Below, piece after piece: positions 33,512 through 53,908 of a DNA stretch of 64,000 bases (its first letter is position 1; every line of letters starts with the position of its first letter). Below the pieces are notes generated by a model. It had not been told where the DNA came from and searched no databases. It saw only the letters and a list, made by a program, of their open reading frames with translations. Source of the stretch: Candidatus Campbellbacteria bacterium RIFOXYC2_FULL_35_25 (GTDB lineage: Bacteria; Patescibacteriota; Minisyncoccia; Phycocordibacterales; UBA12079); assembly GCA_001774495.1 (NCBI GenBank), contig MFAE01000014.1, positions 10,573 to 74,572 on the forward strand. The letters are read 5' to 3'. A program made the position numbers and the translations under genes.

Positions 33512-33512
33512 A

Positions 33513-33758: not shown

Positions 33759-33785
33759 GGTTAAATTTATTTCTATCAATGCCTA

Positions 33786-34011: not shown

Positions 34012-34123
34012 GTATACTTAAATGAGGGTAATATTTAAGTGTAAAAGTTTGTATAGTACAAACTTTGTTCTTTGAGTAGCTTTTACTCTAAATTTTTTTG
34101 TGCCAAAAAAGGAGGTGGGAGAA

Positions 34124-34237
34124 TTGGGCAAAGATATTATTGAGAAGATTATTCGTGATTCCTGTTATTTGGATAATTATTGTGACACACCGGGATATAA
34201 TGATCATTCCGGAAGTGATGAACATAACAAAAATTGA
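34124..34237 (+). CDS. Putative RiPP precursor with three YxD motifs (37 aa, MGKDIIEKIIRDSCYLDNYCDTPGYNDHSGSDEHNKN), not in ORF track
   Basis: AAGGAGGTGG SD before TTG 34124; directly upstream of a radical SAM/SPASM gene. Confidence 0.72.
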   Translation: MGKDIIEKIIRDSCYLDNYCDTPGYNDHSGSDEHNKN

Positions 34238-34310
34238 TGGAGGAAAAGTTGAAGGAGGGTGTGGTAAAAACACCCTCCTTCTTTAATAAAAAAGGTAATG
34301 AGGTGTTACC

Positions 34311-35399: not shown

Positions 35400-35453
35400 G
35401 TGAAACGGCAGGTAAACACATTGTTGCCTGTCGTTTTTTAATAAGATTTTAAA

Positions 35454-36434: not shown

Positions 36435-36505
36435 ATCTATACCTGTGGATTTTTATTTAGTAACTACAAACTAAAAACTATCGACTATAAACTATAAACT
36501 AAAAA

Positions 36506-38092
36506 CTATTCTTTCTCCTCTTTCAACTGCACAAAGAAAGTTGAACCTTTTCCTTCTCCTTCCGATTCTGCCCAAACTTTTCCTCCGTGTGCTTTTACGA
36601 TTTCTTTTACTAAATAGAGACCCAAGCCCGTTCCCATCACACTAACGCTGTTGGCATTTTCGAGTCTGATAAATTTCTTGAAGATTTTGTGAGCTTCCTT
36701 CTTTGGTAATCCGATACCAGTATCTTGTATTTTTAATAGTATTTTATGAGCTTTTTTTGATAGGCTAATATGAATAGAACCCTTCGGAGTATATTTGATT
36801 GAATTATCAATCAAATTGGTGACAATTTGTCTTATTTTTTCTGGGTCAATTTGTGAAAAGAATATTCCTTCTTGTAATTCAAATTTCATTTTTAGGCCTT
36901 TTTCTTCAATAACATGTTTCATGTCATTAACGACTTCTTGAACTATGGGTTTAATATCGGCTTTAACAAAATTAAATTCAATTTTACCTCTCTCTATCCT
37001 TGAAAGGTTAAGGAAGTCGTCTACGATAAAAGCTAGATTGCTACTTGATTGAAAAATTCTTTTAATTATTTCAGAAATTTTTTCAGATGTCGGTCCGTAT
37101 GATCCTTCCATCACCATTGAAGAGTAGCCCTTTATGGAAGCAATAGGGGCTCTTAATTGGTGAGAGGCAACGGAAACAAAATCAGATTTTTGTTGGTCAA
37201 GTTTTTTAAGTCTAATATTCGCTTTTTCAAGTTCCTCTGCAAGTAATTCGATTTTTCTTTTCGCTTGTATTTCTTTGAAAATACTTCTGTTCAGGAGAAC
37301 CACAAAAATGACCATCATGACAAATAAGGCAAAATTTATCATCCATTCATCTACCGAATTCGTTGGCTTCAAAAAATTAAACAAGAAGATTAAGGCCATT
37401 GCTCCAGAAAAAAGTTGAGCAGAGATTATTTTTGTATTTAAAAATTTGTATTTAAGGATAGCGTAACTTACAAAAAATACATATAAGATTATAAAATAAT
37501 TTCCAAAAGGATAAATATTGAAAAGTTGAGGAAAAAAGTTTGTAATTCCCCCACTGAAACCAATAAATCCAGCAATTATTTGGTTTCTTATCTGCCCACG
37601 GTAAAGATAATCTTTTTTATTTTTTAAGTATGTTTTTATTAGATACAGTAAAGAGATTATTATTATAATTATAAAAAAGGTCGGAAATAAAAAATAATAT
37701 TTTCCGGGATCTACCCAATAAAAATCAAAAGTTTTTACCACTCCTAGTTTGAACAATGGAGAAAAACTAAAAATTGCTAATAATCCAGTGAGAAAAAGGA
37801 CAGCTTTTTTAAAATTAGTTTTTTTTATTTCTAAAAAATTAAAAATAAAATTAAGATATAGAATAGGAATAAAAATTGCTGTAAAGTCTAAGCAATATAA
37901 CCATAATAAAGCTGAATTTTCTGTTTGGGAGTAAGCCCCTTTGTAAAGAAAAATGCTCCAAAAAGCAATAAATATAGATAAAATTAACCAAGATTTATTT
38001 AGTTTTGATCTTCTGTTGCTAGAGTATACAATTAAACCAAAACCGATACTGGTAAAAAAAGTTATAATACTTGTTATTCCAAATAATGTCAT
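36506..38092 (-). CDS. 7TM sensor histidine kinase
   Basis: Multi-TM N-terminus; ASHQLRAP, NLIDNSIKYT, DTGIG, GTGLGL, GKGSTF. Confidence 0.93.
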   Translation of the reverse strand: MTLFGITSIITFFTSIGFGLIVYSSNRRSKLNKSWLILSIFIAFWSIFLYKGAYSQTENSALLWLYCLDFTAIFIPILYLNFIFNFLEIKKTNFKKAVLFLTGLLAIFSFSPLFKLGVVKTFDFYWVDPGKYYFLFPTFFIIIIIISLLYLIKTYLKNKKDYLYRGQIRNQIIAGFIGFSGGITNFFPQLFNIYPFGNYFIILYVFFVSYAILKYKFLNTKIISAQLFSGAMALIFLFNFLKPTNSVDEWMINFALFVMMVIFVVLLNRSIFKEIQAKRKIELLAEELEKANIRLKKLDQQKSDFVSVASHQLRAPIASIKGYSSMVMEGSYGPTSEKISEIIKRIFQSSSNLAFIVDDFLNLSRIERGKIEFNFVKADIKPIVQEVVNDMKHVIEEKGLKMKFELQEGIFFSQIDPEKIRQIVTNLIDNSIKYTPKGSIHISLSKKAHKILLKIQDTGIGLPKKEAHKIFKKFIRLENANSVSVMGTGLGLYLVKEIVKAHGGKVWAESEGEGKGSTFFVQLKEEKE

Positions 38093-38769
38093 TTTATTTT
38101 TTTAAATTCTAATATTTGCCAACCTCTTTTTTTTGCTTCTTTTTTTAATTTTGTGCTCGGGTTAACAATAAAAGGATATTTAACTAATTCTAGCACAAAA
38201 ATATCTGAAAAATGATCACCGTATCCCCAACTTTCTTGGTCTTCTAAAGAGATACCTTTTTCCTGTAAGAAATCTAGCATTTTTTTTACTTTATTTTTGC
38301 CATATGTGACATTTCCACTTATTTTTCCTGTAAAAAAACCATCTTTTGTTTCTAGTTTTGTGCAAATATAATCATTAATAGTTAGATGGTTGGCCACTTC
38401 TTTGATTATAATCTCAATAGCGTTGGAGAGTAAAATTATTCTTCTTCCTTTTTCTTTATGTTCTTTTAGTAAGTTCAAAGCCTCTTCGTAGAAATATTTA
38501 GATAGATTATTATCAAAAAAATCTTTGGAAATTTTTTCTATATCGCTCACATTTTTATCTTTAAATAACTCGAAAGAGTATTCGGCAATTTTTTGAGGAT
38601 CACTAACAAAACCTAGTTTATAAAAAATAAACCAAATCATTATTTTAAAATATTTAAGATAAGATAAAAGACCTTTTTTGAGAAGGTATTTTATAAATAA
38701 TTGCTGACTCTGAGTTTTAATCAAAGTATCATCAACATCTAAGATAACTATGCCGTTATTGATTCCCAT
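38089..38769 (-). CDS. HAD-IB family hydrolase
   Basis: LDVDDTL, LLSNA, GYGDHFSD, VNP. Confidence 0.88.
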   Translation of the reverse strand: MGINNGIVILDVDDTLIKTQSQQLFIKYLLKKGLLSYLKYFKIMIWFIFYKLGFVSDPQKIAEYSFELFKDKNVSDIEKISKDFFDNNLSKYFYEEALNLLKEHKEKGRRIILLSNAIEIIIKEVANHLTINDYICTKLETKDGFFTGKISGNVTYGKNKVKKMLDFLQEKGISLEDQESWGYGDHFSDIFVLELVKYPFIVNPSTKLKKEAKKRGWQILEFKKIK

Positions 38770-39491
38770 TTTTCTCTGTGTGGATAAGGTTTATCTGATA
38801 ATTTTTCTATTCTGAGCATTATTTTTGTGGTCAATGTTCTTAATGCTTTTTTATTTAATTTTGCTTTCTCAGTATATGATGAAAGGTGAAGAGGTTCTCC
38901 AATATGTATTTCAATAATTTTTTTAAACTTTGGTTTCTTGTCATATCTAGTCATAACTTTTTCCGCATGCTTAATCCCCACAGGAACAACAGGAATATTG
39001 TTGAGTGTCGCATATTTTGCCACCCCAGTAAAAGCTTTTATCATTTGTGTTTCATCTGGGTTCCTTGTTCCCTCTGGGAAAATGCCGATCATAAATCCTC
39101 TGCTCAGGTGTTCGCTTACTAGGTTGTGAACCTCTCTTTTATCTTTACTTGTTCTCTTCACTTCGATTTGTCCCGTTATTCGCATTAGAGGAAGCCAAAA
39201 TCTATTTGTGAAAAATTTTTCGGCAGATAAGTAATGAATATTTCTAGGAGAGATAGCAATAAAACAGATAAAATCAAAATAGCTTTGATGGTTAAAGGCA
39301 ATAAGAACCGCTCCTTTTTTTGGTATATTTTCTAACCCGGTTATTTTTTTAACCCAAATTAATCTAACAATAGGGCCAAATATTTTTCTGATAAGGAAGT
39401 AAGAAAATTTAACAAAAGTAGTGTCACTTTTACAATTTATATGGGTATTTTTTTTCTGTTTATCGTTCTCGTCCGCTATATTTTCTTTCAT
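38748..39491 (-). CDS. plsC: 1-acyl-sn-glycerol-3-phosphate acyltransferase family
   Basis: NHQSYFD, FPEGTR, PVVPVGI. Confidence 0.85.
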   Translation of the reverse strand: MKENIADENDKQKKNTHINCKSDTTFVKFSYFLIRKIFGPIVRLIWVKKITGLENIPKKGAVLIAFNHQSYFDFICFIAISPRNIHYLSAEKFFTNRFWLPLMRITGQIEVKRTSKDKREVHNLVSEHLSRGFMIGIFPEGTRNPDETQMIKAFTGVAKYATLNNIPVVPVGIKHAEKVMTRYDKKPKFKKIIEIHIGEPLHLSSYTEKAKLNKKALRTLTTKIMLRIEKLSDKPYPHREKWESITA

Positions 39492-39552
39492 ATTTAAAAT
39501 TATACCCCAAAATTTGATATTAAAAAGTATTATAAAAAATTAGAAACAATTA

Positions 39553-40725
39553 TTATATTATTTCAAAACCTTCTATTGTATTATTCTCAATTTTTGATAT
39601 AGACTTATCTTTTTTAGGATATATATGAAGTCCGTTAGGTATTGATCTACCAGGTGCCACAATACATCCTGACCCGAGATAAACTCCGTTACCCAAACAA
39701 CTTCCTAAAAATATGTTTCCCGTATCAATTAAATGATTATCTTTTTTTGTTAAAACATTCTTATTATCAAGCCGAAGGTCGGTTAATATAACGCCAGCCC
39801 CAATAAAGACATCTTTCCCGATGATACTTGCTGATATCATTTGGTTTGCAATTTGTGCGTTTGAATAAATAGTTGAATAAAGAATATGTCCATCAACTAT
39901 TGTGCAGTTATTTCCTATAACTGAATATTCGATGGTTATTCCATTTCCAATAAATGAATCATTCCCGATTACAGATTCCCTTATTATCGTTCCGGCTCCT
40001 ATTGTTACATTATCACCTATGACGCTACATTCAACGATGGCTGTTGGGTGTATATCACATTTTTTTCCTATTTTGTTTAATGAACCTGCTATTTTCCATC
40101 TATTGAAAGAAAAATTTTTAATTGCAAGTAGCAATAAAAGTATTTTATTAGTTTTATTTGCTTGCTCAATTATTGTTATAACAAAAGCAAGATTTGCCGC
40201 CCATAGGTTACTCCAATGATCTATTTGTATGATCGATTTGGTCGTTAATGGTATAAAATATTTACCACTTTTTGATAAATGTTTAGGTAATGGCAAATAC
40301 TCAAATTTTTGGTTTAAATCAAAAATAATTTTTTTTGTTTCGCCCCTTAATTCTTTTGGTGGAAAATAAAATAAATTATAATTAAAATAATCTTTTTTAT
40401 TTTCAACATTTTGCAAATTAATGAAAGTTCTTTCTGTAAAAATTCCTTTTTTCATAGAACATACAGTATTAGATTTAATTTTTTTGGAATTCTGAATAAA
40501 CTCTTTCAAAAGTTCATATTCAAAATATATGTTGTCGTTTATTACCAGATGTTCCTCCTCATCTCTGATTTCAGATAAATTATCAACAATAACGGGGTTT
40601 AGATTAAGTTTCAAGAAATTATCATTCTGTATCTCGTTCAATTTTCTGTTTCCAATTTTTAAATCTTTAGACAACTTTTGAAAAGGTTCTATTAATTCCT
40701 GTTTTTTTATTACATAAATTTTCAT
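39553..40725 (-). CDS. Left-handed beta-helix (hexapeptide repeat) protein, GlmU-C-like
   Basis: IHPTAIVE, IGDNVTIGAG, IGKDVFIGAG, LGNGVYLGSG. Confidence 0.75.
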   Translation of the reverse strand: MKIYVIKKQELIEPFQKLSKDLKIGNRKLNEIQNDNFLKLNLNPVIVDNLSEIRDEEEHLVINDNIYFEYELLKEFIQNSKKIKSNTVCSMKKGIFTERTFINLQNVENKKDYFNYNLFYFPPKELRGETKKIIFDLNQKFEYLPLPKHLSKSGKYFIPLTTKSIIQIDHWSNLWAANLAFVITIIEQANKTNKILLLLLAIKNFSFNRWKIAGSLNKIGKKCDIHPTAIVECSVIGDNVTIGAGTIIRESVIGNDSFIGNGITIEYSVIGNNCTIVDGHILYSTIYSNAQIANQMISASIIGKDVFIGAGVILTDLRLDNKNVLTKKDNHLIDTGNIFLGSCLGNGVYLGSGCIVAPGRSIPNGLHIYPKKDKSISKIENNTIEGFEII

Positions 40726-40805: not shown

Positions 40806-40977
40806 AAAACCCCAAAAACCTTTGTTGAATTAAATTTTCTTTTATTTAAAAAAATGTTTAGCTGGAGCGGGGGATTAAAGAGAAAACCGTTGACATACAG
40901 GTCTGTTCTGTTACCATTAAGTCGATAGTTCTTAGGTAGTTTGCCTGTAATCTTTGGAAAAAAAGGAGGTGGTAAAA
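40806..40977 (+). promoter_or_regulatory. Reusable promoter/5'UTR/RBS module, copy A
   Basis: TTGACA 40890, TGnTACCAT, gatagttctt, AAGGAGGTGG; homologous to 49075, 49939 and 51640. Confidence 0.85.
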
Positions 40978-41139
40978 GTGAAAGAGTTGTTGGGTAACAA
41001 CGGAGAAAGAGGAACCCCTTTCCTGTTAGGGTTTCTTGAGAAGATTGAGGTTCCACCAACTGGCTCAGCAAATTGCGCCACATATGTTGGAGCCACCCCA
41101 ACTCCAAGCGGAGACGCTTACGATTACGATCAAGATTAA
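40978..41139 (+). CDS. Putative graspetide-like precursor (53 aa, MKELLGNNGERGTPFLLGFLEKIEVPPTGSANCATYVGATPTPSGDAYDYDQD)
   Basis: GTG after a strong SD; PFLLGFLE leader; Thr/Ser then Asp-rich core; terminator 41165-41197. Confidence 0.72.
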   Translation: MKELLGNNGERGTPFLLGFLEKIEVPPTGSANCATYVGATPTPSGDAYDYDQD

Positions 41140-41196
41140 TCGTCTTTCTAACCCGCGCAAAGGAAAAGATGCTGGTACACCGCCGGCATCTCTTTA

Positions 41197-41844
41197 TTAT
41201 TTATTTTTCAAGATTTTACGCATCGATTTGCTTTCCAAGCTATCCCCTAGAATGAGTTTTAATGTTTGATTTTTATATACTTCTGCTTTTCCATTTTCAC
41301 CAATTTTTTTATAGAAATTTGATAAACCCTGTTTTGCTAAAATTAATTCGTCTTTATTTTTTTTATCAGAAATTTTTTCTGTGTTTTTATACCACCAGAG
41401 TGCTTTATTGTTTTGGTTAAGTCTATCGTATATGTCAGCTAATCTATTTGAAGTTACTGGGTTTTTTTTAATTTTGTAATTTTCCTTTCCTAATTTTATG
41501 GCTTTTTTACTGTTGTTCAAAATAGCATATATTTGTGCTAGGTAAATTCGAGAGTTGAAGGTGATCGAATTTTTTATTTGGGGATCTTTTTTAATTATTT
41601 TTTCTAAAATTTTAATTGATTCGTTAAAATAATCTTTGATATTTCCGGTTTCCTTTTTGCTTTTCTTGTTTTGATATAATCGTTGGGTGGCATCATGATA
41701 CAGAAAAAAAGCTAATTGAAGCATAAGAGTATCTGCCGGAGGGTTTTTTTCTAGATATTTTCTTATAAGAAGAATAGCTCCTGACCGGTCACCCGACATA
41801 TTTAATTTTTTAAGTTTTTTCTCTAATTGGTTTGTTTTTTTCAT
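41197..41844 (-). CDS. TPR-like helical repeat protein
   Basis: YLAQIYA...KAIK, RLADIY...KALWWY, GLSNFY...KAEVY. Confidence 0.7.
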   Translation of the reverse strand: MKKTNQLEKKLKKLNMSGDRSGAILLIRKYLEKNPPADTLMLQLAFFLYHDATQRLYQNKKSKKETGNIKDYFNESIKILEKIIKKDPQIKNSITFNSRIYLAQIYAILNNSKKAIKLGKENYKIKKNPVTSNRLADIYDRLNQNNKALWWYKNTEKISDKKNKDELILAKQGLSNFYKKIGENGKAEVYKNQTLKLILGDSLESKSMRKILKNK

Positions 41845-41847
41845 ATG

Positions 41848-42279
41848 CTAATTTATTAAATTTAAGCCGTTTTTTATTGATTCTTTTTCTTGTTCAAAAG
41901 CCAAATATGAATCAACTAAATCAAAAGAAACCCATTCTGCTTTTTCTATTGTAAAACCACCTTCGTTTTTAGAGTCTACTTTAATTTCATCATTTTTTGT
42001 ATTTTCAACAAGAAAAACTCGTACTTTATGTAATATTTCTCCAGCTTGGTACGAATATTTCTCTAATTCATCCATCAAAAGTAAATTTTCCAAACCTGTT
42101 TCCTCTTTTATTTCTCGTATAATAGTTTCCTCAGGTATCTCTCCTGTTTCTATTCCACCTTTTACCAAACGGTAATCAGTTCTGTCTCGCTCTTCGTCAT
42201 ATCTTTTCAATAGTAAAAATTCTACACGTCCTGTGTTTTTTTTAAAAATGACAGCTTGGGCATCTTTACTTATTTCCAT
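41848..42279 (-). CDS. NUDIX hydrolase
   Basis: KGGIETGEIPEETIIREIKEETG. Confidence 0.9.
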   Translation of the reverse strand: MEISKDAQAVIFKKNTGRVEFLLLKRYDEERDRTDYRLVKGGIETGEIPEETIIREIKEETGLENLLLMDELEKYSYQAGEILHKVRVFLVENTKNDEIKVDSKNEGGFTIEKAEWVSFDLVDSYLAFEQEKESIKNGLNLIN

Positions 42280-42370
42280 AATATTTTTAATTTAAATATA
42301 ACTTTCTAAATAATAACACATAGGATGCCGTTCTTTGATTTTAAAACAAAATGTTAGTATTATTATAACA

Positions 42371-43651
42371 ATGAGTATTTTAAATACATTTAATGTAGTT
42401 CGCTTTGAGAAAAAGCTTAGAAATGGCATTAAGGTTGTTTTATTTTACCGTCCCGGATCTCCCATTACAACACATGCTGTGCTTAATTCTGGCTCAAGAT
42501 TTGACCCTGTAGGTATGTTTGGGGTTGCTCATTTTTTGGAACATCTTGTGGTTGGAGGGTCAGCAGAATTTCCTACTAAAGATTTACTTGCTGAACACAT
42601 CGAATCAATCGGGGGGAGTTTTGGAGCAAGGACAGGTCAGGACTCTTTAATTATTGCAACAGAGGTTCCAGACAAATCTGATTATGGCAGGGTAGTCGAC
42701 ATCTTTAAAGCAACTCTTTGTGAGCCATTGATAGATAAAAAATTTTTTGAAAATGAAAAAAAGGTTGTTGTAAAAGAAGTTAATAGAAGTAATTCAAATC
42801 CTGCTCAGGTTTTAATTAAGACCTGCCGAGATTTATTTTTTAAGGGAACTTCTTTTTCACACGAGGTTCTCGGTGATGCGGAGAGTATTCAGGAACTTGA
42901 TTATGAAAAAGTTGTTGCTATCCATAAAAGAATGTTTGATAAAACAAGGATTACTTTTATCGTATCAGGAGATATTTCTATTGAAGAGCTTGTTTTAAAT
43001 TTAGAAAAACTTAATTTTTTAGAAGGGAATGATTTTTTTGAAAAAAGTTATGAACCTAAGGTTATTTATGAAAAGAGGATTTCATCTTCCCCCCTTGATA
43101 TTCCTCAAACATATATCTGTTTTGGGATTCCGGCACCTAAGCTGTTTAGCAAAGAGTTAGTCCATTTGAATCTAGCGGGAGACATACTAGCCGGTGGTCG
43201 CTCTTCTCGGTTAACAAAGCGTCTTCGTTATGATAAAGGGCTTGTTTACGGTGTAAGATACGGCAGAGTTGGTGGTTTAGAGCTTGGTTTTTGGGGATTT
43301 TTTACTGACACAGCAAGCGAGAATGTTAATGATTTGATGAGTGAAATTTCTGAGGAAATAAAAAATATTAGAACTAATGGAATTAAAGCCTCTGAATTAG
43401 AGTTTGTAAAAAACAAAAATATAAAGTCTCTTAAACGGACGATGCAAACATCAAATAGTTGGGTAGATTTTCATAATCTTTCAGAAGCGTTTTCATCAGA
43501 ACCTTATGATATAGATAATTTCGCAAAATATATTGAGGAAGCAACAGTAGAAGATATTGAAAATATTATTAATAAATACTTTCAAACAAACAATTGGAGA
43601 TTAGCTACTTGTGGGAAAACAGAAGAAGAATCCGTGATTTATAAAATATAG
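42371..43651 (+). CDS. M16 (insulinase-family) peptidase
   Basis: GSRFD, GVAHFLEHL, EKKVVVKE, SSRLTKRLRYDKGLVY. Confidence 0.9.
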   Translation: MSILNTFNVVRFEKKLRNGIKVVLFYRPGSPITTHAVLNSGSRFDPVGMFGVAHFLEHLVVGGSAEFPTKDLLAEHIESIGGSFGARTGQDSLIIATEVPDKSDYGRVVDIFKATLCEPLIDKKFFENEKKVVVKEVNRSNSNPAQVLIKTCRDLFFKGTSFSHEVLGDAESIQELDYEKVVAIHKRMFDKTRITFIVSGDISIEELVLNLEKLNFLEGNDFFEKSYEPKVIYEKRISSSPLDIPQTYICFGIPAPKLFSKELVHLNLAGDILAGGRSSRLTKRLRYDKGLVYGVRYGRVGGLELGFWGFFTDTASENVNDLMSEISEEIKNIRTNGIKASELEFVKNKNIKSLKRTMQTSNSWVDFHNLSEAFSSEPYDIDNFAKYIEEATVEDIENIINKYFQTNNWRLATCGKTEEESVIYKI

Positions 43652-43814
43652 AGAAATAATTTAAGAAAATAAAAACTCAAAAATCTGGTGGGGTCGATTT
43701 TACTTGACGAAACGCTTGAGGGGGGTAAAATATAGATGAAAGTTTACTTTATGTGAACTTAGTCCTTGGGCGATATTGTCCGTAAAATTCACTAACTACT
43801 AAGGAGGTAGAAAA

Positions 43815-44027
43815 GTGAAGCATAAAAAGAATTTTGCAGTTAATGATGGGGATTTTAAAAAATCATCTTGGTCAAAGAATAACCCCAAAACCTGTGTCAT
43901 GGTTGCTGTTAAACCGGAGGGGGTTGCTGTTCGGGATAGTAAAGATCCGGCTAAACAGACATTATTTTTTGATCATGATGAGTGGACCGCCTTTGTTAAG
44001 GGCGTGGAAGGTGGTGAATTCCGCTGA
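43815..44027 (+). CDS. DUF397-family protein
   Basis: FKKSSWS...CVMVA...VAVRDSKDP...EWTAFVKGVEGGEF; AAGGAGG SD, own promoter and terminator. Confidence 0.88.
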   Translation: MKHKKNFAVNDGDFKKSSWSKNNPKTCVMVAVKPEGVAVRDSKDPAKQTLFFDHDEWTAFVKGVEGGEFR

Positions 44028-44102
44028 GTTCTGCATCATCACTGTTGTCGAGACGGATAGGTGTTAAATCTATCCGTCTTTTATTAGATAAAATATAGTA
44101 TT

Positions 44103-44585
44103 ATGGAAAAAACTTTATATATTATTCCAGGGCTTGGAGAAACTTGTCGGCGTAAACCATATCAATTATTAGCAAAAAAAGCCAAAGAGAAGGGTTATGA
44201 AGTAATCTTTAAGAATGTAGATTGGAATCAAAAATTATCTTTACAAACTTTTTCTGTATCCAAAGACGACATAATTTTTGGTTTTTCTTTGGGGGCTGTT
44301 TTGGCATGGTTGGTAGCACAGGATTATAAATGTAGACACATAATTTTAGCTTCAATGACACCTCATTATTCTTGGAAAGATAAAGAAATAAAAAAAGCAC
44401 TAATTGATTTATTAGGCTTAAAATTTGTAAATGATGTTATAAAAAAACTTGATTCAAAACATCAGGCCAAAAGACAAACAATAATGTATGGGGATCTTGA
44501 GAATGAAAAAGGTGATATTATTGTATCTAAAACAGAGCATGAATTAACTGAAAATTATCTTAAGGAAATTGAGCAAATAATTTAA
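44103..44585 (+). CDS. Small alpha/beta-hydrolase-like protein (paralog 2)
   Basis: YIIPGLGE, GFSLGA, ASMTP, TEHEL. Confidence 0.75.
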   Translation: MEKTLYIIPGLGETCRRKPYQLLAKKAKEKGYEVIFKNVDWNQKLSLQTFSVSKDDIIFGFSLGAVLAWLVAQDYKCRHIILASMTPHYSWKDKEIKKALIDLLGLKFVNDVIKKLDSKHQAKRQTIMYGDLENEKGDIIVSKTEHELTENYLKEIEQII

Positions 44586-44588
44586 GAA

Positions 44589-45404
44589 ATGAAAATTAAA
44601 GACTTAACACAAAATTATATAACAAACATTTTAGAGAAAGATAATTTGGACTTATATAAAAAAAGTATGCCCGAGTTATTTTCTCATTATTTTGAGTATT
44701 GGGCTTTGGAAGATTACTTTCATAAATCGTTAAAAATAAAAGAAGAAGTTGAAGAAAAAACGGATTTGATAAAATCTCGTTTAGATTTTATTGAAGAAAA
44801 ACTTAAAGATTTTGGTTTTGATACTTCTGATGTAGAAATACTTTTGTTTGTTGGGCAAAACTGCACAAACGGACACGCTTTTGAAAAAGATGGAAAGTTT
44901 ATTGTCTGGCTACCGATTGAGGCTTATGAGAGTAAAGAAGATATTGATATTTTTGTAACCCACGAGATAATCCATGCTTTGCATTATTCTGTAAACCCCG
45001 ATTTTTATTTCAAAACAAAAGAAGAAAAAATGAATGTTGGTAGACAAATAATAACCGAGGGCCTTGCAACTTATCTTACATCAAAAGTTTTGAATATAAA
45101 CGAAGGAAAAGCCTTGTGGGCGGATTTTCTTAATAAAGATGAATTGAAAAATTGGTTTGATAGTTGTGAAGATAAACGATATGAGTTATATGATTTTGTT
45201 TTGAAAAATTTTAATTTTTCAAATAAAGATATTCAGATTTTTTGGGCAAATGATCCAAAAGACGTCTATAAGTATAGAGCGGGTTACTTTGTGGGGTCAG
45301 AATTAATAAAAGATTTTATAAAAAACAATAAGATAGAAGATAAGGACTTATTGTCTTTAGATAGGGTAAAATTTGAAAAAAAAATTACTGAGATGTTGAA
45401 ATAA
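44589..45404 (+). CDS. DUF2268-like Zn-dependent protease
   Basis: THEIIH, EGLATY, AGYFVG. Confidence 0.8.
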   Translation: MKIKDLTQNYITNILEKDNLDLYKKSMPELFSHYFEYWALEDYFHKSLKIKEEVEEKTDLIKSRLDFIEEKLKDFGFDTSDVEILLFVGQNCTNGHAFEKDGKFIVWLPIEAYESKEDIDIFVTHEIIHALHYSVNPDFYFKTKEEKMNVGRQIITEGLATYLTSKVLNINEGKALWADFLNKDELKNWFDSCEDKRYELYDFVLKNFNFSNKDIQIFWANDPKDVYKYRAGYFVGSELIKDFIKNNKIEDKDLLSLDRVKFEKKITEMLK

Positions 45405-45450
45405 AACCCCCAAAAACTGTTGTTGGTTTAGAGCTTATTTTATTTTAAAA
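45403..45450 (+). repeat. Cassette-boundary repeat cccaaaaactgttgttggtttaga
   Basis: Also at 46648 and (truncated) 49940; diverged copy at 40810. Confidence 0.8.
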
Positions 45451-45502
45451 GGCAAATAAAGAGGGCTGTTCTGCAGTCCTCTTTAAATATATAATAATAA
45501 TT

Positions 45503-46030
45503 ATGGAAAAAATCATTTATATCATTCCAGGATTGGGAGAAAATTGTAATTTGTTAAGATATAAAAAGTTAGCAGAGGCTTTACAATTTAGTGGTTACAA
45601 AGTGAATTGTGTTAACCCTGATTGGTACATGCCTATTTCTGGACAAGTTTTCAAAATCGAAAAAGAAGCTATTTTGCTCGGTTTTTCTTTCGGTGCCATT
45701 CTCGCTTACCTTGTTGCACAAAAATATCCTTGTAAAAAGGTTATTTTTGCTTCTATGTCACCAATACAGAAGTTTTCTTTTAAAGAACTCGAAAAAGATT
45801 TTAGGAGAGATATTGCCCCTAAGTTAGGAAAAAAGCTTGCTAAGGAAAGAGGGACTGAGTTGGCCAGAGATATAAAAAATATAAAAATTTCCTTGAAGGA
45901 ATTACAGACACCTTTTATTACATTAGTAGGAGAAAAAGAAGAGGAAATGATGCCCGCTGATTTTATTGTTCCACAAACAGGACATATTATGACGAATAGG
46001 TATATAAAATGTATTCAAAAATTAGTTTAA
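45503..46030 (+). CDS. Small alpha/beta-hydrolase-like protein (paralog 3)
   Basis: YIIPGLGE, GFSFGA, ASMSP, TGHIM. Confidence 0.75.
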   Translation: MEKIIYIIPGLGENCNLLRYKKLAEALQFSGYKVNCVNPDWYMPISGQVFKIEKEAILLGFSFGAILAYLVAQKYPCKKVIFASMSPIQKFSFKELEKDFRRDIAPKLGKKLAKERGTELARDIKNIKISLKELQTPFITLVGEKEEEMMPADFIVPQTGHIMTNRYIKCIQKLV

Positions 46031-46060
46031 ATTTTATCAAATAATTTTAAAATAAACCCA

Positions 46061-46549
46061 ATGACTAAATTTTATATTATCCCTGGACTGGGGGAAAAGA
46101 GAGAAAACTATCGGTGGCTAATATCAGAGGCAAAAAAGAAATATGATGTAGAATTTCTTAATTTACAACTAAAAAATAATTCTTTTTTAAAACTCACTCA
46201 AACAAAAATAGAACCAAATTCAGTAGTGTTTGGTTTTTCTGTGGGTGCACTTATCGCATATAAATTAAAAACTTATATACAGAAAGGAATTTATTGCTCA
46301 ATGTCTGATTTTTTGGGCAGTGATAGCAAGAAAGTGTTTAAAGATTTGGTTGATTTTTTTGGTGAAGAAACTGCTAATGAATTAAAAAAATTGAGGTATG
46401 GAAAACCAAAAGCAAAAGAAGTTTTTTTGTTTTGTGGAGATAGAGAGATGAGTGAAAGGATGAATAAGATCGGTGGTGTTAAAATTATTAAAAACACAGA
46501 ACACAAATTTACAAAGAACTATAAAAAAGCTGTTCTAGATGTTATTTGA
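46061..46549 (+). CDS. Small alpha/beta-hydrolase-like protein (paralog 4)
   Basis: YIIPGLGE, GFSVGA, CSMS, TEHKF. Confidence 0.75.
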   Translation: MTKFYIIPGLGEKRENYRWLISEAKKKYDVEFLNLQLKNNSFLKLTQTKIEPNSVVFGFSVGALIAYKLKTYIQKGIYCSMSDFLGSDSKKVFKDLVDFFGEETANELKKLRYGKPKAKEVFLFCGDREMSERMNKIGGVKIIKNTEHKFTKNYKKAVLDVI

Positions 46550-46781
46550 ATTAAGAAAAAATAAATAAAAATTGTTTTTAAATTATAACATTATAATTTA
46601 AAAAACTAAAAAAAAGCAGGGGATTAGGGGTTATTTGGTTTCTAACTCCCAAAAACTGTTGTTGGTTTAGATTTCCTTTTATTTTAAAAAATTTCGGTTG
46701 GGGTGGGGTTATTGACTTTTCGCTTATAAAAGAGCATTTTCTAATTAGGTTGAACCTTTAATAATAGAGAGGAGGTTGGTG

Positions 46782-47423
46782 ATGTCACTAAAGGGAATAT
46801 TCATTGTAAGACATGCTGAGTCAGATGAAGATATTAATCCTAATTTAAATGGCGAAGTGGTAGACTCGGAGATATCTATCACCACGCTTGGTCAAAAGCA
46901 GGCTTTCGAAATAAAATCTCAACTCCAAAAAATCCTTCCAGTATTCAGAGGGTTGAGGGTTATTGTCTCTACGTCGAATCGAGCAATTGAAACAGCTAGA
47001 ATTTTAACTGAAGGATTTGTTGATGAGGGGAATAAGTATTATTCTTTCGAAAATTCGATACGGAACCTTAATTGGGGAGATGTTAATCAAACTAATGTTA
47101 GACAGATAGAAAAGGAGAGATATGAAGTGGGAGTTTTATTCTATAGTTTCCTTGGTGGGGACCATACTCCTGAGTATGTGAAAAACATCCAGTCTTTTAC
47201 CGACAGATGTCTAAAGGAAGGTTTGCAATCCAATCATCCAGAAGCATTACTGATTGTTGCTCATGGTTTTTCCATGAGAGTCATTGTGAAATGCTTTCTA
47301 GGTATGAGCGATGATGAATTCAAATGGCTAGCAAATCCCCACAACTGTTTTATTGTAAATCTTGCAGTGGATGGTGAACACATTAACCTTAAGACAAAGA
47401 TGCCTATCTATAAAGCAAGATAA
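46782..47423 (+). CDS. Histidine phosphatase family protein
   Basis: IVRHAES, GQKQA, RAIETA, VAHG; GGAGG SD. Confidence 0.85.
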   Translation: MSLKGIFIVRHAESDEDINPNLNGEVVDSEISITTLGQKQAFEIKSQLQKILPVFRGLRVIVSTSNRAIETARILTEGFVDEGNKYYSFENSIRNLNWGDVNQTNVRQIEKERYEVGVLFYSFLGGDHTPEYVKNIQSFTDRCLKEGLQSNHPEALLIVAHGFSMRVIVKCFLGMSDDEFKWLANPHNCFIVNLAVDGEHINLKTKMPIYKAR

Positions 47424-47484
47424 ATAATGGCGAAAAGCCTGTCTCTGGTTTCATTTAGAGCAGGCTTTTGTTATAATAATTTGT

Positions 47485-48015
47485 ATGAATAAATTAGATT
47501 TAGTACTTACAGACTTGTTAATATTTCCCACAAAAGAATATCCTAATCCAGAAAAATACGAAGAAAGAGTAACAGTAAAAGCGATTGTTGAGAACGGAGA
47601 AGGTAAAATTGCATTTGTTACAAATCCAGTACATGGATTTTATATTTTGCCTGGGGGTGGTGCCGAGTCAGACAATTTGATTGAAGAGGTTAAAAGAGAA
47701 TGTGATGAAGAAATAAATTGGGAAGTTGCTGAAGTTGCTGAAGTTGCAAGCATAGAAGAGTTTAGAAATAGAAATGCTAAACATTACATGACATATTGTT
47801 ATAGTGCAAAACCTACTAAAGAACTTCCTAGTGACACAAGAACTGATGACGAAAAAGAAAATGGACTTGAGGTTGTTTGGTTAGAAAAAAATGAGGCTAT
47901 TAAAAAATTATTGTCACAGACAGAATCTCTTAAAAGAGGTGAGGTAGAATTTTATAATACAGGATTTAACATACTTAGAGATTGCATGTTTCTACAGAAG
48001 TACTTAGATAATTAA
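47485..48015 (+). CDS. NUDIX hydrolase
   Basis: LPGGGAE...VKRECDEE. Confidence 0.85.
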   Translation: MNKLDLVLTDLLIFPTKEYPNPEKYEERVTVKAIVENGEGKIAFVTNPVHGFYILPGGGAESDNLIEEVKRECDEEINWEVAEVAEVASIEEFRNRNAKHYMTYCYSAKPTKELPSDTRTDDEKENGLEVVWLEKNEAIKKLLSQTESLKRGEVEFYNTGFNILRDCMFLQKYLDN

Positions 48016-48016
48016 T

Positions 48017-49033
48017 TTATTTTTTGATAAAGTCTATAATAGTTTTAGTGACCTCTCTCTCTAAGTCTGGTTTTTCGTAAACTCTTTTCCAAGAGCTGTT
48101 GTTTTGTTTGTAGTGAAAGCTAGATTTTTCTAGAGTATATTGCCCTAGACATAAACATTGGAATTCAAATAAGTAAAACTTGCCATCTCTATAGCCAATA
48201 TCTAAAGACATAAACGGGGTGTTAAATTTCTCATATATTTTCTTTGAATAGTCCAACAAACCTTTTGGTGGAGTTATTTCAAAATTTAATTTACCACTCC
48301 CACTAGCTCTGAAATCATCTTTTCTATTTTCTCTGTACACACAGTAATATTTATCTCCATAGGCTAAAATCCTATAATCACCTTTTAAATCTGGTATAAA
48401 ATTTTGAATAATAAATTTACATCGATTATTAGACATAGGAGTGTATCTTCTACCTGTTTTAATTTTGGAGACCCACAATTTAAAATTTTCAAAAGTAAAA
48501 GACCTCGATATTTTATGGGCATATTTTCTCTTTTTTGATTGAGTATTTAGAAGTTCGATATTAGAACTTCTTGTTCCAGATCCAGGTTTAATTATTGTTA
48601 ATTTATTGGATTTGAATAGGTCACTTTTAGAATATTCTTCAAAGGTACCAAAACCTCGTGATTGTATATTTTTAATTTCATCAATATTCATAGAATCGCG
48701 AAGTATCTCCATAAAAACCTTGTTATGATGTGCTCTAAAATATGGAAAATTTGGAATAAGTTTTGCACCCTGTAATTCTAGAGCTAATACAATATCTTCT
48801 ATGTAACTTTTATATAGTAGATTAGGATCTTCTGACGATTGGTATAGTACCCATTCATTAGTGTAATTCTCTGTTCGGAAGTTTATTTCATGGAAATTTT
48901 TAATAATTAGGTCAAAACCAGCTTTTTTGAAATTAGCTTTAAGTTTATTAATATCTATACAAGCACCACGATATCGAGTTGAGAAATAAAACTGATCTCG
49001 GTAGTCTATTAGTAAGTAAATTTTATTATTCAT
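48017..49033 (-). CDS. RimK-like ATP-grasp protein
   Basis: HNKV, IIKPGSG, IIQNFIP, DYRI, DFRASGSG, SLDIG, LFEF. Confidence 0.8.
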   Translation of the reverse strand: MNNKIYLLIDYRDQFYFSTRYRGACIDINKLKANFKKAGFDLIIKNFHEINFRTENYTNEWVLYQSSEDPNLLYKSYIEDIVLALELQGAKLIPNFPYFRAHHNKVFMEILRDSMNIDEIKNIQSRGFGTFEEYSKSDLFKSNKLTIIKPGSGTRSSNIELLNTQSKKRKYAHKISRSFTFENFKLWVSKIKTGRRYTPMSNNRCKFIIQNFIPDLKGDYRILAYGDKYYCVYRENRKDDFRASGSGKLNFEITPPKGLLDYSKKIYEKFNTPFMSLDIGYRDGKFYLFEFQCLCLGQYTLEKSSFHYKQNNSSWKRVYEKPDLEREVTKTIIDFIKK

Positions 49034-49074
49034 ATGAATAATAAAACTTTACCCATAATAAAGCTCTTTGTCTA

Positions 49075-49171
49075 GTAAAATCGTTGACAGATTAAGCAAC
49101 TTTGTTACTATTAAGTTGATAGCTCTTAGGTAGTTTGTCTGTAATCTTTTGAAAGAAAGGAGGTGGTAAGA
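49075..49171 (+). promoter_or_regulatory. Reusable promoter/5'UTR/RBS module, copy B
   Basis: TTGACA 49084, TGnTACTAT, gatagctcttaggtagtttgtctgtaatcttt, AAGGAGGTGG. Confidence 0.85.
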
Positions 49172-49240
49172 ATGTCTGGTAACGGTGGAAACCATCAAGG
49201 TGGTGGAACTGGAGGGGGCGGCGGCGGCCGGAAGCAGTAA
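49172..49240 (+). CDS. Gly-rich micropeptide (22 aa, MSGNGGNHQGGGTGGGGGGRKQ), not in ORF track
   Basis: ATG at the module's start position after the SD; terminator 49256-49285. Confidence 0.68.
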   Translation: MSGNGGNHQGGGTGGGGGGRKQ

Positions 49241-49298
49241 CCTTCGGTTTTTTCTAAAAGGGGTGGCTGTTGCCACTCCCTTTTTATATAATAAAGAC

Positions 49299-49940
49299 AT
49301 GAAAAAAATACCATTTTATTCTAATTTAAAAGATAATAATCATTGCATCCAAGCTTGTTTGAAGATGGTTATTAAGTATTACTTTCCAGCAAAAAATTAC
49401 TCTTTTAAAGAGTTAGACAAAATGTCAAAACATAAAAAAGGAATGTGGACTTGGCAGGGAGCTTCTTTGCTCGCTCTCGCAGATATGGGTCTTGAAGTTG
49501 TAAATATTGAAAATATAGATTACAAAAAATTTGCTGAGCAGGGGGAAATGTATTTACAAAATATTTGGAGTGAAGAGGTTTTTGCAACACAAGATAAATA
49601 TTCAGATTTAAAGCAAGAAAAGAAAATTGCACAAAAAATGGTTGAGAGTAAAAAAATGAAATTGGCAAATAGGGATGCAAAATTTTCTGATGTTGAGGGT
49701 TATTTTGCCAAGGATTATTTGGTTTTAGTTTCTGTGAATCCTTGTGTTTTTGAAAATAAAAAGTGTTATTGGAGTCACATTGTTTTAATTACCGATATAA
49801 ATGACCGCTGGGTCACATTTCATGATGTCGGTTTACCTCCTGTCGAAAATAGAAAAATCAGTAGAAAAATTTTTGAAAAAGCGATGACTAAACCTTGGAA
49901 AGAGGACACTAATGTCATTGCTTTAAAATATGAAAAATAA
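49299..49940 (+). CDS. Papain-fold (C39-like) cysteine peptidase
   Basis: PFYSN...HCIQACLKM...SHIVLI...FHD; the track's start at 49185 runs through the peptide and terminator, so 49299 is preferred. Confidence 0.78.
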   Translation: MKKIPFYSNLKDNNHCIQACLKMVIKYYFPAKNYSFKELDKMSKHKKGMWTWQGASLLALADMGLEVVNIENIDYKKFAEQGEMYLQNIWSEEVFATQDKYSDLKQEKKIAQKMVESKKMKLANRDAKFSDVEGYFAKDYLVLVSVNPCVFENKKCYWSHIVLITDINDRWVTFHDVGLPPVENRKISRKIFEKAMTKPWKEDTNVIALKYEK

Positions 49941-50110
49941 AAACTGTTGTTGGTTTAGATTTTTTTTATTTTAATTATATTTAAAAAATGTTTAGCTAGG
50001 GTGGGTGATTATGCAAAACCGTTGACATACAGGTCTGTTCTGTTACCATTAAGTCGATAGTTCTTGGGCAGTTTTCTTTAATCTCTTGTGAAGAAAAGGA
50101 GGTGGTAATA
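49939..50110 (+). promoter_or_regulatory. Reusable promoter/5'UTR/RBS module, copy C
   Basis: aaaaccgttgacatacaggtctgttctgttaccattaagtcgatagttctt identical to copy A. Confidence 0.88.
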
Positions 50111-50302
50111 GTGGGTTGGTTTACTGGAAACAGTGACGATGGATCAAAGGTGAAGGTTACGGATTCTGGGGATACTCACAAGACGGAAAAGATATCTTCC
50201 TCTGACCGTCCTCATTCTCATGACATCGTGAAGATTGATAAGCCCTCAGGATCTGTGAAGGAAATAAGTATTGGGCCTAATGCTTCACGAAGAGGCAAGT
50301 AA
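50111..50302 (+). CDS. Small Ser/Asp/Lys-rich protein (63 aa, MGWFTGNSDDGSKVK...RRGK)
   Basis: GTG after AAGGAGGTGG; terminator 50317-50343. Confidence 0.7.
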   Translation: MGWFTGNSDDGSKVKVTDSGDTHKTEKISSSDRPHSHDIVKIDKPSGSVKEISIGPNASRRGK

Positions 50303-50410
50303 GCTTTTTATGTGGCAAGACACAGCCCTCACGGCTGTGTTTCATTTTATATTTATTCTATAATATAAAATGTAAGAAATTTAATTTTTTAGTAATATTT
50401 ATATAAATAA

Positions 50411-51637
50411 ATGAAAGCCCCATTCCAAAAAAAAGACAATGACTTATATGTCGTTAATTTCCCTCAAAAAACCAAGGATATTTTTTTTGATATTTATCTG
50501 AGAACTGGTTATTCTGAAGAATCAAATAATGAGTTTGGTATTGGCCATTTGCTAGAACATTATTTGGTAGAATCTCTAACTGATAATATGAAATTTGTTA
50601 ATGGTTCTACTGGACAAGATTTTACCAATTATTATTTACAGTCAGATTCTAAAAGAATAGTAAAAGATGTTAAAATTTTTTTGAATACTATTTTAAATTC
50701 AAATTTTAGCGACGAGAAATTATTTAAAAGAGAAAAAGAAGTAATTGAAAATGAAATTCGCAACAAAAAAAATATTAAAGAAGAATCTCTTAATTTTATT
50801 TTAAAAAAATTTTTTGGTAGTAATTTCCCCTACGCTAGAGAAAAAGTAAATCAAATTTCAAATATTAAAAAATTCAAATTTGGCGATATTAAGAAACACC
50901 ATAATAAGATTTTTTGTAGCGGAAATATTTTTTTTGTTCTTTCTGGTTTTAATATTGATGGGAAAATGGAAAATAATATTTTAAATATTATTAAAGAACA
51001 TAAACTTGCTAAAATTAAAAAAAATAAAAGAATAGAGTATTCTTTTTCGGGGGAAAAGTTTGTTAAAAACTCAAAATATTACTGGAATGACGAATTGATA
51101 GTTAATGTTTCTTTTGATTTTTCGAAGAAAATTAGAAAAAATACAAAAAACATAAAAGCTATAAACATGCTTAGAAAATATTTTGAAGATTTAGATTTTT
51201 ATTGTGCAAAAAATATGAGAGATTTGGGGATCTACTCTAGTTCTTTCGAATGGATGATTTGGGATAACGCGGGAATAGTTATTTTGTCTTCTATGTTAAA
51301 TGGAGGGAAGGCGAATATTATTTTGGGAGAGTTTTTAAAATTTTTAGAAAAAGTTAAAAAAGATGGAATTTCAAATGGCGATTTAGTCAAATTGAGGAGA
51401 AAAGAAAAAGAGGGGCTTACCAAAGCCTTCGGGAATAATGCAAGAAGATTAAGTTGGGTTGTAAATGATTTGCTCTCCTATGGCGATGTGACTTTATTAA
51501 AAGATGATATTAAAGAATTAAAGAGTATTGATTCCAATTATATAAAAAAAATTGCTAAAAAACTTTTTGATTTTGATAAGATGAATATAACTATCTTAGG
51601 AAAGGATGCTGGAAAGACTAAAATTAAACTGGACTAA
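50411..51637 (+). CDS. M16-family peptidase (divergent)
   Basis: GIGHLLEHY, NGST, EKEVIENE. Confidence 0.82.
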   Translation: MKAPFQKKDNDLYVVNFPQKTKDIFFDIYLRTGYSEESNNEFGIGHLLEHYLVESLTDNMKFVNGSTGQDFTNYYLQSDSKRIVKDVKIFLNTILNSNFSDEKLFKREKEVIENEIRNKKNIKEESLNFILKKFFGSNFPYAREKVNQISNIKKFKFGDIKKHHNKIFCSGNIFFVLSGFNIDGKMENNILNIIKEHKLAKIKKNKRIEYSFSGEKFVKNSKYYWNDELIVNVSFDFSKKIRKNTKNIKAINMLRKYFEDLDFYCAKNMRDLGIYSSSFEWMIWDNAGIVILSSMLNGGKANIILGEFLKFLEKVKKDGISNGDLVKLRRKEKEGLTKAFGNNARRLSWVVNDLLSYGDVTLLKDDIKELKSIDSNYIKKIAKKLFDFDKMNITILGKDAGKTKIKLD

Positions 51638-51639
51638 AT

Positions 51640-51797
51640 AATTTTAATTATATTTTTAAAAATGCTTGGTTGGAGTGGGGTATTAAAGAGAAAACCGTTG
51701 ACACAAGTAGTCGTTTTGTTATTATTAATGGGATAGTACTTTGTTTTTCGGTTCTAATTTTACAATTGGATATTTCCAAAAAAGGAGGTGGTGATCT
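51640..51797 (+). promoter_or_regulatory. Reusable promoter/5'UTR/RBS module, copy D
   Basis: attaaagagaaaaccgttgaca shared with copy A; TGnTATTAT; AAGGAGGTGG. Confidence 0.8.
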
Positions 51798-51959
51798 GTG
51801 AATATCCCCGAAATAATGGTAACGGGTATTAACCCAGGTAAAAAACCCACTGGCTTTTATCTTGATGTTTCGCAAGGTTATAATGAATGTGAAAATGATA
51901 ATTGCGGTGGCGGTTTTGGGGATTGCTCTGATTGTGGAGCTGATCCAGATCCAAACTAA
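51798..51959 (+). CDS. Putative Cys/Asp-rich RiPP precursor (53 aa, MNIPEIMVTGINPGKKPTGFYLDVSQGYNECENDNCGGGFGDCSDCGADPDPN), not in ORF track
   Basis: GTG after a strong SD; 4 Cys in the C-terminal half; terminator 51976-52017; radical SAM gene 0.9 kb downstream. Confidence 0.72.
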   Translation: MNIPEIMVTGINPGKKPTGFYLDVSQGYNECENDNCGGGFGDCSDCGADPDPN

Positions 51960-52072
51960 TTATCAAATTGTTTTTAAGCACCTTATCCCTGATACAATTG
52001 GGGATGAGGTGTTTTTTGTGGTAATATACTTAATAATATAATGTCTAAAGTTAATAATTTTTAAATAAAAAT

Positions 52073-52861: not shown

Positions 52862-53908
52862 ATGACTGCTATAAGAAAAGTAGATCAAAACAATGAAATT
52901 ATTCCCCGCTCCGCTTGGATAACAGTTAATCGTGCTTGCAATTTTCGTTGTAGCGGATGCTATGCTAAAAATACAGGGTATGGTTTAAAGCAAAGCATGA
53001 GTTTTGAACTTTCAAAAAAGATCGCAAACCTTGTTTCATCGTTAGGGATTTCAAGAATTACAATAATTGGAGGAGAACCTACTTTATGGAATAATTTATC
53101 TAATTTCAATAAATTTTGTATAGATAAAGGTTTGCAAACTAGAATTGTTACAAATGCAATGAGATTTGGAGATGATAATTTTTGGTTAGATTATACAAAA
53201 AGCCCAAATACAAGAGCCGGAGTATCTATAAAAGCTTTTGATAAGAAAAGCTTAAAGGATATTACGGGAATTGATTCATTTGAATTTGTTAAAAAAGGTT
53301 TGCAGAGAGCTATTTCACATTTTAAATGTGGGGTTAGCACTGTTTATTCTACAACTTCGGCTAGTCATATACTTAATATTACTAAATTCGCTATGGATTG
53401 TGGGGCAAAAAGTATAAGTATAAGCCCTTGTACGCCAAGATTTTGTAATGGAAAAGTAGACGGCGCTTATGTTGTAGAGCCAGTAGCAATGACAAAACAT
53501 CTTATTAAAATCTATCCAAAACTTGTTGAGATCACTAATGGTAATATTGTATTTTTAATGAAATTACCTCTGTGTTTGTGGCCGGATGATTTTGTTAAAA
53601 ATCTAATAGAGGAAAATCAAATTAACACTATTTGCCAATTACAACATAGGAGTGGCATTATTTTTGATGTTGATGGAAAACTTATGTTATGTAATAGTCT
53701 TTTCGATTACCCTGTTGGTAAATATGGGGTTGATTTTTTTAACAAAAAATCGTTAATTGCTTTATTAAACAACCGGAAGACTCTTGATGTTTATGATAGG
53801 TTAACATCTTATCCATCAAAAAAATGTATGAATTGTAATCGTTACGATGTTTGTGCCGGTGGATGTCCTTTATTTTGGGCTCTTTTTGACCCAGAAAGTT
53901 TAATTTAA
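52862..53908 (+). CDS. Radical SAM/SPASM protein
   Basis: CNFRCSGC, GGEPTL, VTNA, LPLC, C...GKLMLC, CMNC...CAGGC. Confidence 0.9.
   Translation: MTAIRKVDQNNEIIPRSAWITVNRACNFRCSGCYAKNTGYGLKQSMSFELSKKIANLVSSLGISRITIIGGEPTLWNNLSNFNKFCIDKGLQTRIVTNAMRFGDDNFWLDYTKSPNTRAGVSIKAFDKKSLKDITGIDSFEFVKKGLQRAISHFKCGVSTVYSTTSASHILNITKFAMDCGAKSISISPCTPRFCNGKVDGAYVVEPVAMTKHLIKIYPKLVEITNGNIVFLMKLPLCLWPDDFVKNLIEENQINTICQLQHRSGIIFDVDGKLMLCNSLFDYPVGKYGVDFFNKKSLIALLNNRKTLDVYDRLTSYPSKKCMNCNRYDVCAGGCPLFWALFDPESLI

Follow-up and report, generated by a model that had tools for sequence, protein, structure and literature searches.

We have analysed a 64,000-nucleotide stretch (the window; contig MFAE01000014.1, here C14) of the genome of Candidatus Campbellbacteria bacterium RIFOXYC2_FULL_35_25 (G000; 782-kb assembly, 35% GC), and found that it contains an array in which one promoter-leader-Shine-Dalgarno (SD) block is present in four copies, A to D, each heading a different predicted small-peptide gene. 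The feature is real: the copies align with each other and are restricted to one island, two relatives of the same genus (G005 and G006) carry different arrays next to the same operon, and leaders have been paired with different genes. We consider it probable that this is a chromosomal hot spot at which nearby block copies recombine by a RecA-type pathway, without a dedicated recombinase, thereby adding, removing and re-pairing accessory genes.

All four copies are located on the plus strand. Copy A (40806-40977), delineated by alignment, local scores and a promoter scan, consists of an upstream repeat, a G-rich segment, a promoter (-35 at 40890, -10 at 40912-40917), a leader of class alpha and the SD (40963-40973). 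Alignment placed copy B, which has only the promoter, an alpha leader and the SD, at 49077-49171, and copies C (49939-50110) and D (51636-51797, leader class gamma) at the stop codon of the preceding gene. Every copy contains TTGACA, a 16-nt spacer, TG and a -10 box, followed by GATAG(T/C)(T/A)CTT and AAGGAGGTGGT. The four copies had been proposed in an earlier sequence-only reading of this DNA, and their local alignment scores against copy A (B, 121; C, 210; D, 134) are far above the maxima of 40-44 obtained with 100 shuffles; the identical core of about 50 nt that had been noticed in A and C is 51 nt long (40883-40933). The promoter scan of the window as a whole was at chance level (51 found versus 49.4 expected), and hence the evidence is the repeat itself rather than the match to a consensus. 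According to a blastn search of the whole assembly, the block does not occur beyond the window. The contigs of the likely source run, which is not an independent one, confirm the assembly order and break only at the core shared by A and C. Sequences of G000 are present in groundwater and soil sequencing runs, none of the listed runs being RNA.

The similarity between the copies ends at the start codon, as had been claimed. The coding-plus-terminator DNA of A, B, C and D, which encode predicted peptides of 53, 22, 63 and 53 aa, is no more alike than shuffles in any of the six pairs. Each unit also has its own terminator, because the four plus-strand matches of a terminator scan are exactly those downstream of A (41167-41191), B (49260-49279), C (50318-50342) and D (51976-52014). 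Only the 5' head is thus common to the units and the terminators travel with the payload, which does not agree with the proposed cassette having two fixed, shared flanks.

The upstream repeat was reported at three gene junctions; we located it at 45405, 46644 and 49939, and also at 40807, which was missing from that list. Two of these sites are partial copies on the plus strand. The one at 45405-45450, which begins at the stop codon of the gene before it, has nothing but the upstream repeat and heads a hydrolase gene, and the longer one at 46644-46713 contains the repeat and the G-rich segment, is joined to another promoter and SD, and heads a histidine-phosphatase gene (46782-47423). A DUF397 unit (43761-44027, plus strand) has a leader of class beta and an SD behind a different promoter. 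Hence, although A to D do head peptides, the module is not peptide-specific, as it also fronts enzymes and DUF397. The DUF397 gene itself (43815-44027), whose family we take to be mainly actinobacterial, is SD-led and 80% identical in G005.

On the scale of copy A, the left ends of B, C and D correspond to 40883, 40814 and 40828, and the partial copies end at 40852 and 40872. Such ragged ends bear on the possibility that the upstream repeat serves as an integron-like site where units are inserted by a site-specific system encoded elsewhere (the Xer-type or the large serine recombinase). Copies often begin at a stop codon (three of the five non-A copies begin at most 1 nt from one), and the genome has one tyrosine and one serine recombinase, in line with this explanation. 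However, besides the ragged ends, both recombinases are encoded on other contigs, the tyrosine enzyme scores as XerC/D-like, the repeat sequence differs among the species, and neither an RYYYAAC..GTTRRRY pair in the 16 intergenic gaps nor a hairpin in the repeat was found. The upstream half of the block folds no better than shuffles (repeat hairpin z -0.3 to +1.35). A site-specific origin therefore seems highly unlikely to us. Integrons are defined by attC, attI and IntI. The array resembles them in its series of unrelated small genes and in having repeats near stop codons, but it lacks attC, attI and IntI, and every unit has its own promoter. No attC was detected in the 16 gaps, and the sole tyrosine recombinase found scores 141.9 against an integron-integrase cut-off of 265. 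Together, the ragged ends and the lack of attC, hairpin and IntI exclude an integron; the earlier remark that neither attC sites nor an integrase are visible was therefore correct, whereas the integron-like logic attributed to the array found no support.

The array adjoins an operon on the minus strand (36506-40725) encoding a hexapeptide-repeat protein, an acyltransferase, a HAD hydrolase and a seven-transmembrane (7TM) histidine kinase, and this anchor operon also adjoins the arrays of G005 and G006. Close orthologues of the acyltransferase-HAD-kinase operon are present in two of the six other genomes of the genus. G000 has four matches to the block motif AAAYCGTTGAY-N14-TGTTAYYATT, G005 has two, likewise at this locus, and the 399 other genomes of the order have none. 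In G005, where a single contig spans the locus, a shorter array lies on the same side of the anchor and has the order anchor, block, DUF397, hydrolase, other genes, another peptide, block, peptide C, M16 peptidase and tyrS. Its two homologous blocks, which are 88% alike over 154 nt, head DUF397 and C, meaning that DUF397 is there preceded by a full block. In G006 the order is anchor, edge copy, the G005 peptide, edge copy and a Cys-rich peptide; the anchor-edge sequence of this genome is thus present twice and heads two other peptides. In both relatives the repeat starts within the leftward promoter of the anchor itself, at its -10 box. The far flank of the array is aspS in G000 and tyrS in G005, and only 4 of the 19 array genes of G000 that were tested have an orthologue at the G005 locus (B not among them). 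The order of the genes and the gene content at the block copies therefore differ among relatives, which supports the proposed swappable payloads.

The leaders provide direct evidence of re-pairing. They form three classes, alpha (A/B/C, 80-89% alike), beta (74-84%) and gamma (71-77%). Peptide C has an alpha leader in G000 and a beta leader in G005 (62% between them), with coding DNA that is 78% identical, and the gamma leader, which in G000 heads D, stands before a different peptide in G005 and G006. Since leader classes are paired with different genes across genomes, re-pairing has taken place at or near the start codon. Other searches for the block contributed little: blastn of copy A against 60 relatives gave only matches of 18-44 nt, none of which covered the promoter core, and did not recover the block of G005; an exact match to the block pattern in one Pseudomonas contig, found in a search of genome contigs, was dropped as chance; and the pattern with two mismatches, which had two matches in five genus genomes versus one control match, was not used.

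The same comparison could be explained by old tandem duplications of the anchor edge that have decayed and were homogenised by gene conversion, such that genes rarely move and the heads are overwritten. In line with this, C and its M16-type peptidase neighbour (50411-51637, plus strand) are found together after a block in G000 as well as in G005, their DNA identities (78% and 66%) are near the 72-79% of core genes, and copies are more alike within than between genomes. Yet 15 of the 19 tested array genes have no orthologue at the G005 locus, the gamma leader heads different peptides, and C is found behind other promoters at other loci. Moreover, the proteins of recurring cargo types have identities of only 22-37%, which excludes a recent duplication of whole units. 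We find this explanation unlikely.

Under the hot-spot model, the general RecA pathway would act on taken-up DNA between nearby copies of the block, and we infer three steps, none of which was observed. A crossover in the conserved anchor operon combined with a second, out-of-register crossover in a block copy would insert a donor unit before the resident one, with a truncated copy remaining at both of its borders. If a crossover fell in the short stretch that units have in common around the SD, a new gene would come to stand behind an old head, and exchange among neighbouring copies would keep these more similar to one another than to the copies of other genomes. G000 has both RecA and ComEC, and unrelated promoter-SD blocks also repeat locally and on the same strand, as three copies 4-10.6 kb apart in G005 and as pairs 0.5-0.8 kb apart in G005 and G000; both observations fit recombination between nearby copies. 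Upstream sequences are shared by 9 of 145 SD-led genes in G000 and 5 of 127 in G005, as well as by non-SD genes (30 of 464 and 29 of 466, respectively), the latter almost all dispersed and far apart. Sharing of upstream DNA is therefore not special to SD-led genes, whereas its locality is. The locus offers an example, extending over three species, of how reduced Patescibacteria genomes may gain and re-wire accessory genes without integrases.

The head-swap design is already known from the promoter-early stem-loop (PeSL) cassettes of the T4-type phages RB49 and phi1, which have about 50 copies per genome (Arbiol et al. 2010, PMC2839356). As far as the available text of that paper goes, both systems have repeated intergenic units that begin at the stop codon of the gene before, include AT-rich DNA, a sigma-70 promoter and an SD, and end where an orphan gene starts. 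In both, the orphan genes lie in variable regions, and shuffling by recombination between nearby copies, probable in the array, involves no dedicated recombinase that has been identified. The array has the repeated sigma-70 consensus promoter with AT-rich upstream DNA, the SD and orphan start codon at the 3' end, and the varying content. It differs in being located on a cell chromosome, in having 2-6 local copies with a sequence private to each locus, and in its SD, which is without an anti-SD partner in the host cell; in addition, no mini-circles like those of PeSL cassettes, and no excision, were seen here. The array thus works like PeSL cassettes but departs from them in two features: the block has no internal stable terminator stem-loop (only a 5-bp leader hairpin), as the terminators follow the payload, and its location is not a phage but a chromosomal contig with aspS, the motif being absent from viral contigs. 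If our view is correct, it extends PeSL-type shuffling from phages to a cell chromosome.

Two other systems are related to a lesser extent. The minimal mobile elements of Neisseria are differing whole-gene cassettes next to conserved genes that are exchanged by homologous recombination alone, according to the accessible part of the source (PMC3898611). Different cassettes beside a conserved gene in relatives are found here too, but as serial units with internal repeats and with only one conserved flank instead of two. Homology-facilitated illegitimate recombination, described in the accessible part of PMC3240628 as a RecA-dependent process that needs one homologous end and a micro-homology joint of 3-10 bp, is in line with the ragged copy ends and with joints lying close to the SD; it usually deletes resident DNA, however, and is a mechanism and not a repeated regulatory unit.

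Several observations weigh against the hot-spot model. The pattern of local repeats was not seen in four 200-kb samples of other families, and the similar stretches at 43665 and 56289 in the window score at shuffle level. No event was caught: the contigs of four runs, which drop rare variants, contained no credible mini-circle joint and no within-population variants, such that the ongoing exchange envisaged before was not seen, and all the listed joints have a short side of at most 25 letters. A second strain that is about 98-99% identical is colinear wherever its contigs span junctions, and gene conversion alone would produce an equal within-genome similarity. Only three genomes are compared, of which one is represented by a 3.4-kb contig, and hence the direction and order of events are not established. 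As to derivation, the G000 upstream repeat resembles the anchor promoter only weakly. Finally, the block SD forms 8 bp, including wobbles, with the cell's own 16S tail (-5.7 kcal/mol), compared with -18.5 kcal/mol for a canonical tail. It should be noted that the zero coverage of the histidine-phosphatase bin in two of the four runs, at a depth of 2-6, proves nothing. The substitutions of the second strain, seen in single low-depth contigs, cluster in repeat copies (46627-46657 and 49996-50013), which is what exchange among copies would predict.

The SD of the block poses a question of its own. The single 16S ribosomal RNA (rRNA) of G000 ends with GGATTATTTCAAA and has no CCTCC. The same applies to 38 of the 40 tails found in 39 of 201 genomes of the order, to both tails found in five genus genomes and to G005, and uL1 was not found in G000. 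From these two traits and its small size we infer that G000 belongs to the Parcubacteria (Paceibacteria) subgroup of Patescibacteria described in the available text of PMC9297842, with which it shares a 16S tail without CCTCCT, the missing uL1 and the scarcity of SDs on most genes (an SD-like motif precedes only 32 of 552 long open reading frames (ORFs) of G000). Intergenic GGAGG is nevertheless enriched 5-9 nt before ATG codons, with 79 cases versus 22 expected in G000 and 49 versus 14 in G005; the corresponding ratios in four 200-kb samples were 1.7-2.9, one of them not significant. The own-tail complements TGAAA, GAAAT and TGAGG are flat in G000, and the controls are not perfectly flat, TGAGG being 2.2-fold up in G005 and CCTCC 1.5-1.9-fold. 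Organisms without anti-SD generally lack SDs, as stated in the available part of PMC6107228, unlike the accessory gene class described here, which keeps canonical SDs at the right spacing. Our searches, which did not extend to subscription papers and bioRxiv supplements, found no paper on this type of locus or on SDs in members of the Candidate Phyla Radiation (CPR) that lack an anti-SD.

The SD outlives changes of the leader. In six chosen, non-independent leader pairs it differs at 2 of 54 positions, versus 66 of 282 elsewhere, and a strict SD is kept in G005 in 6 of 10 SD-led orthologue pairs versus none of 289 others (299 pairs with matched N-termini, of 446 genes having a homologue). Both SD differences lie in the C leader of G005, so decay of the SD does occur. 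This persistence argues against the view that the array was built in a phage or mobile element from PeSL or moron units and imported piecemeal, its SDs being relics of donors with an anti-SD. Such an origin would fit the higher GC content of SD-led genes (0.42 versus 0.35), the large share of them for which G005 has no homologue (63 of 87, versus 182 of 604) and the anti-SD kept by about half of the Parcubacteria, as given in the part of PMC9297842 at hand. On the other hand, viral contigs contain no match to the block motif or to peptide C, and the repeat of G005 and G006 begins inside the chromosome's own operon promoter, and we consider such an import unlikely.

Judged from these comparisons, the block SD is under selection and yet is unmatched to the cell's own 16S tail. 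The ribosome-binding site that had been postulated is thus present as a canonical SD, but it would pair poorly with this tail, and strong translation in this cell is not established. The most likely possibility, to which we give an even chance, is that the SD would be read in this cell, either through wobble pairing of low strength or by a protein that recognises it within a folded leader. It is improbable, in our estimate, that the heads are signals for the ribosome of another cell, such that the swappable genes of an epibiont without anti-SD, modified-peptide precursors among them, would carry a canonical promoter, SD and terminator in order to be translated after DNA or mRNA enters a host; the GGAGG spacing peak, the flat own-tail complements in G000 and the SD outlasting its leader are compatible with this idea. 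The locus supplies test pieces for the question why perfect SD sites persist on one class of genes in bacteria that have no anti-SD, as the natural leader variants, i.e. three classes, one with a decayed SD, can be used directly in reporters.

Within the leader, a GTTCTT box is followed by a 5-bp hairpin with compensatory changes (40927-40949 and the homologous leaders, ten hand-picked in all). With leaders picked by eye and a variable-loop script, 46 of 50 cells are paired versus a shuffle maximum of 41; RNAalifold gave no consensus structure across the ten leaders, and Rfam gave no match at the gathering score, only three weak matches far below the cut-off. Pairing of the box with the SD was rejected (0.00-0.36 of five possible pairs in 17 leaders, one of them placed 1 nt off), and the SD itself frequently takes part in local pairs (0.19-0.97, not compared with shuffles). 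The box, a possible boxA, resembles a site in the rRNA leader of the genome; NusB is present and Rho was not found in G000. We regard a role of the box in antitermination as no more than a lead.

The payloads look like pre-existing accessory genes, with precursors of modified peptides likely among them, and to judge by their homologues at least three of the predicted peptides belong to real families. All four genes are on the plus strand. Peptide A (40978-41139) matched only itself in a first search and gave four matches later, of which a 944-aa one was dropped as a repeat artefact. It has a Phh-type leader motif (PFLL..FLE) and a Thr/Asp-rich core (TYVGATPTP..GD.YDYDQD) that is invariant in two homologues, i.e. 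in three sequences in all, and on the basis of both it is likely a graspetide-type precursor. No ATP-grasp ligase adjoins it; its neighbour is a TPR protein, and the nearest MvdC/D-like ligase gene, at 30617, lies 10 kb away and has a small ORF of its own. In the available text of PMC8939145, branch 1 of the CPR graspetide loci shows the same leader motif, Thr...DxD core and TPR neighbour, but its Thr spacing is TxxxT instead of the TxxxxT of peptide A, the sole MvdC/D-like ligase found here being the distant one.

Predicted peptide B (49172-49240) is Gly-rich. Predicted peptide C (50111-50302) represents a conserved orphan family with homologues in G005 (86% identical), in another genome (G016, 84%) and at seven metagenome loci (five distinct, 70-85%). 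These homologues occur at other loci and behind other promoters, and one of the five metagenome upstream regions weakly resembles that of C in G000; an Atlas search gave no usable match. Predicted peptide D (51798-51959) is Cys-rich and has one homologue with the same Cys-rich core, and a radical-SAM/SPASM gene (52862-53908) is located 0.9 kb downstream of it. A viral-contig match to D of 15 residues was dropped.

Two further SD-led proteins deserve mention. The one at 12029-12448 of the window is secreted, has a weak match to an exosortase-dependent family and ends in a presumably PEP-CTERM-like tail; no exosortase was found in the G000 genome. The other, on the minus strand of contig C10 of G000 (31885), has a signal-like N-terminus and a CxxCH motif and is presumably cytochrome c-like, in a genome that we do not expect to make heme.

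Other loci in these genomes are arranged in a comparable way. The region 23400-36620 of the window contains five copies of the histidine-kinase 3' end with downstream repeats. Three of these are fused to one TTGACA promoter, and their heads front small peptides, the MvdC/D-like ATP-grasp gene (30617) and a radical-SAM/SPASM gene (34311); this family, across the anchor, follows the same logic as the block array. Fifteen acyltransferase homologues from other families were viewed with 1.5-kb flanks. In three other genomes (L058-L060), a related 7TM histidine kinase has units with ATP-grasp and hydrolase genes as neighbours, and an M16 peptidase adjoins the anchor operon in L066; such kinases may be regular neighbours of peptide cassettes. 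On contig C1 of G005 (573.6k, 580.3k and 584.3k; L035, L036), an unrelated terminator-promoter-leader-SD block is present in three copies among core genes, each preceding a different orphan. Two of them also have a 123-nt 3' flank in common (92% alike), making this a cassette whose two flanks are both conserved. A 471-nt perfect direct repeat on contig C5 of G000 (60064-61509), which doubles an SD-led 81-aa gene around an SD-led ORF of 32 aa, is either a recent duplication or an assembly artefact. Dispersed families of palindromic repeats at 3500-4900 and 13500-13840 of the window are common to other contigs and to G005.

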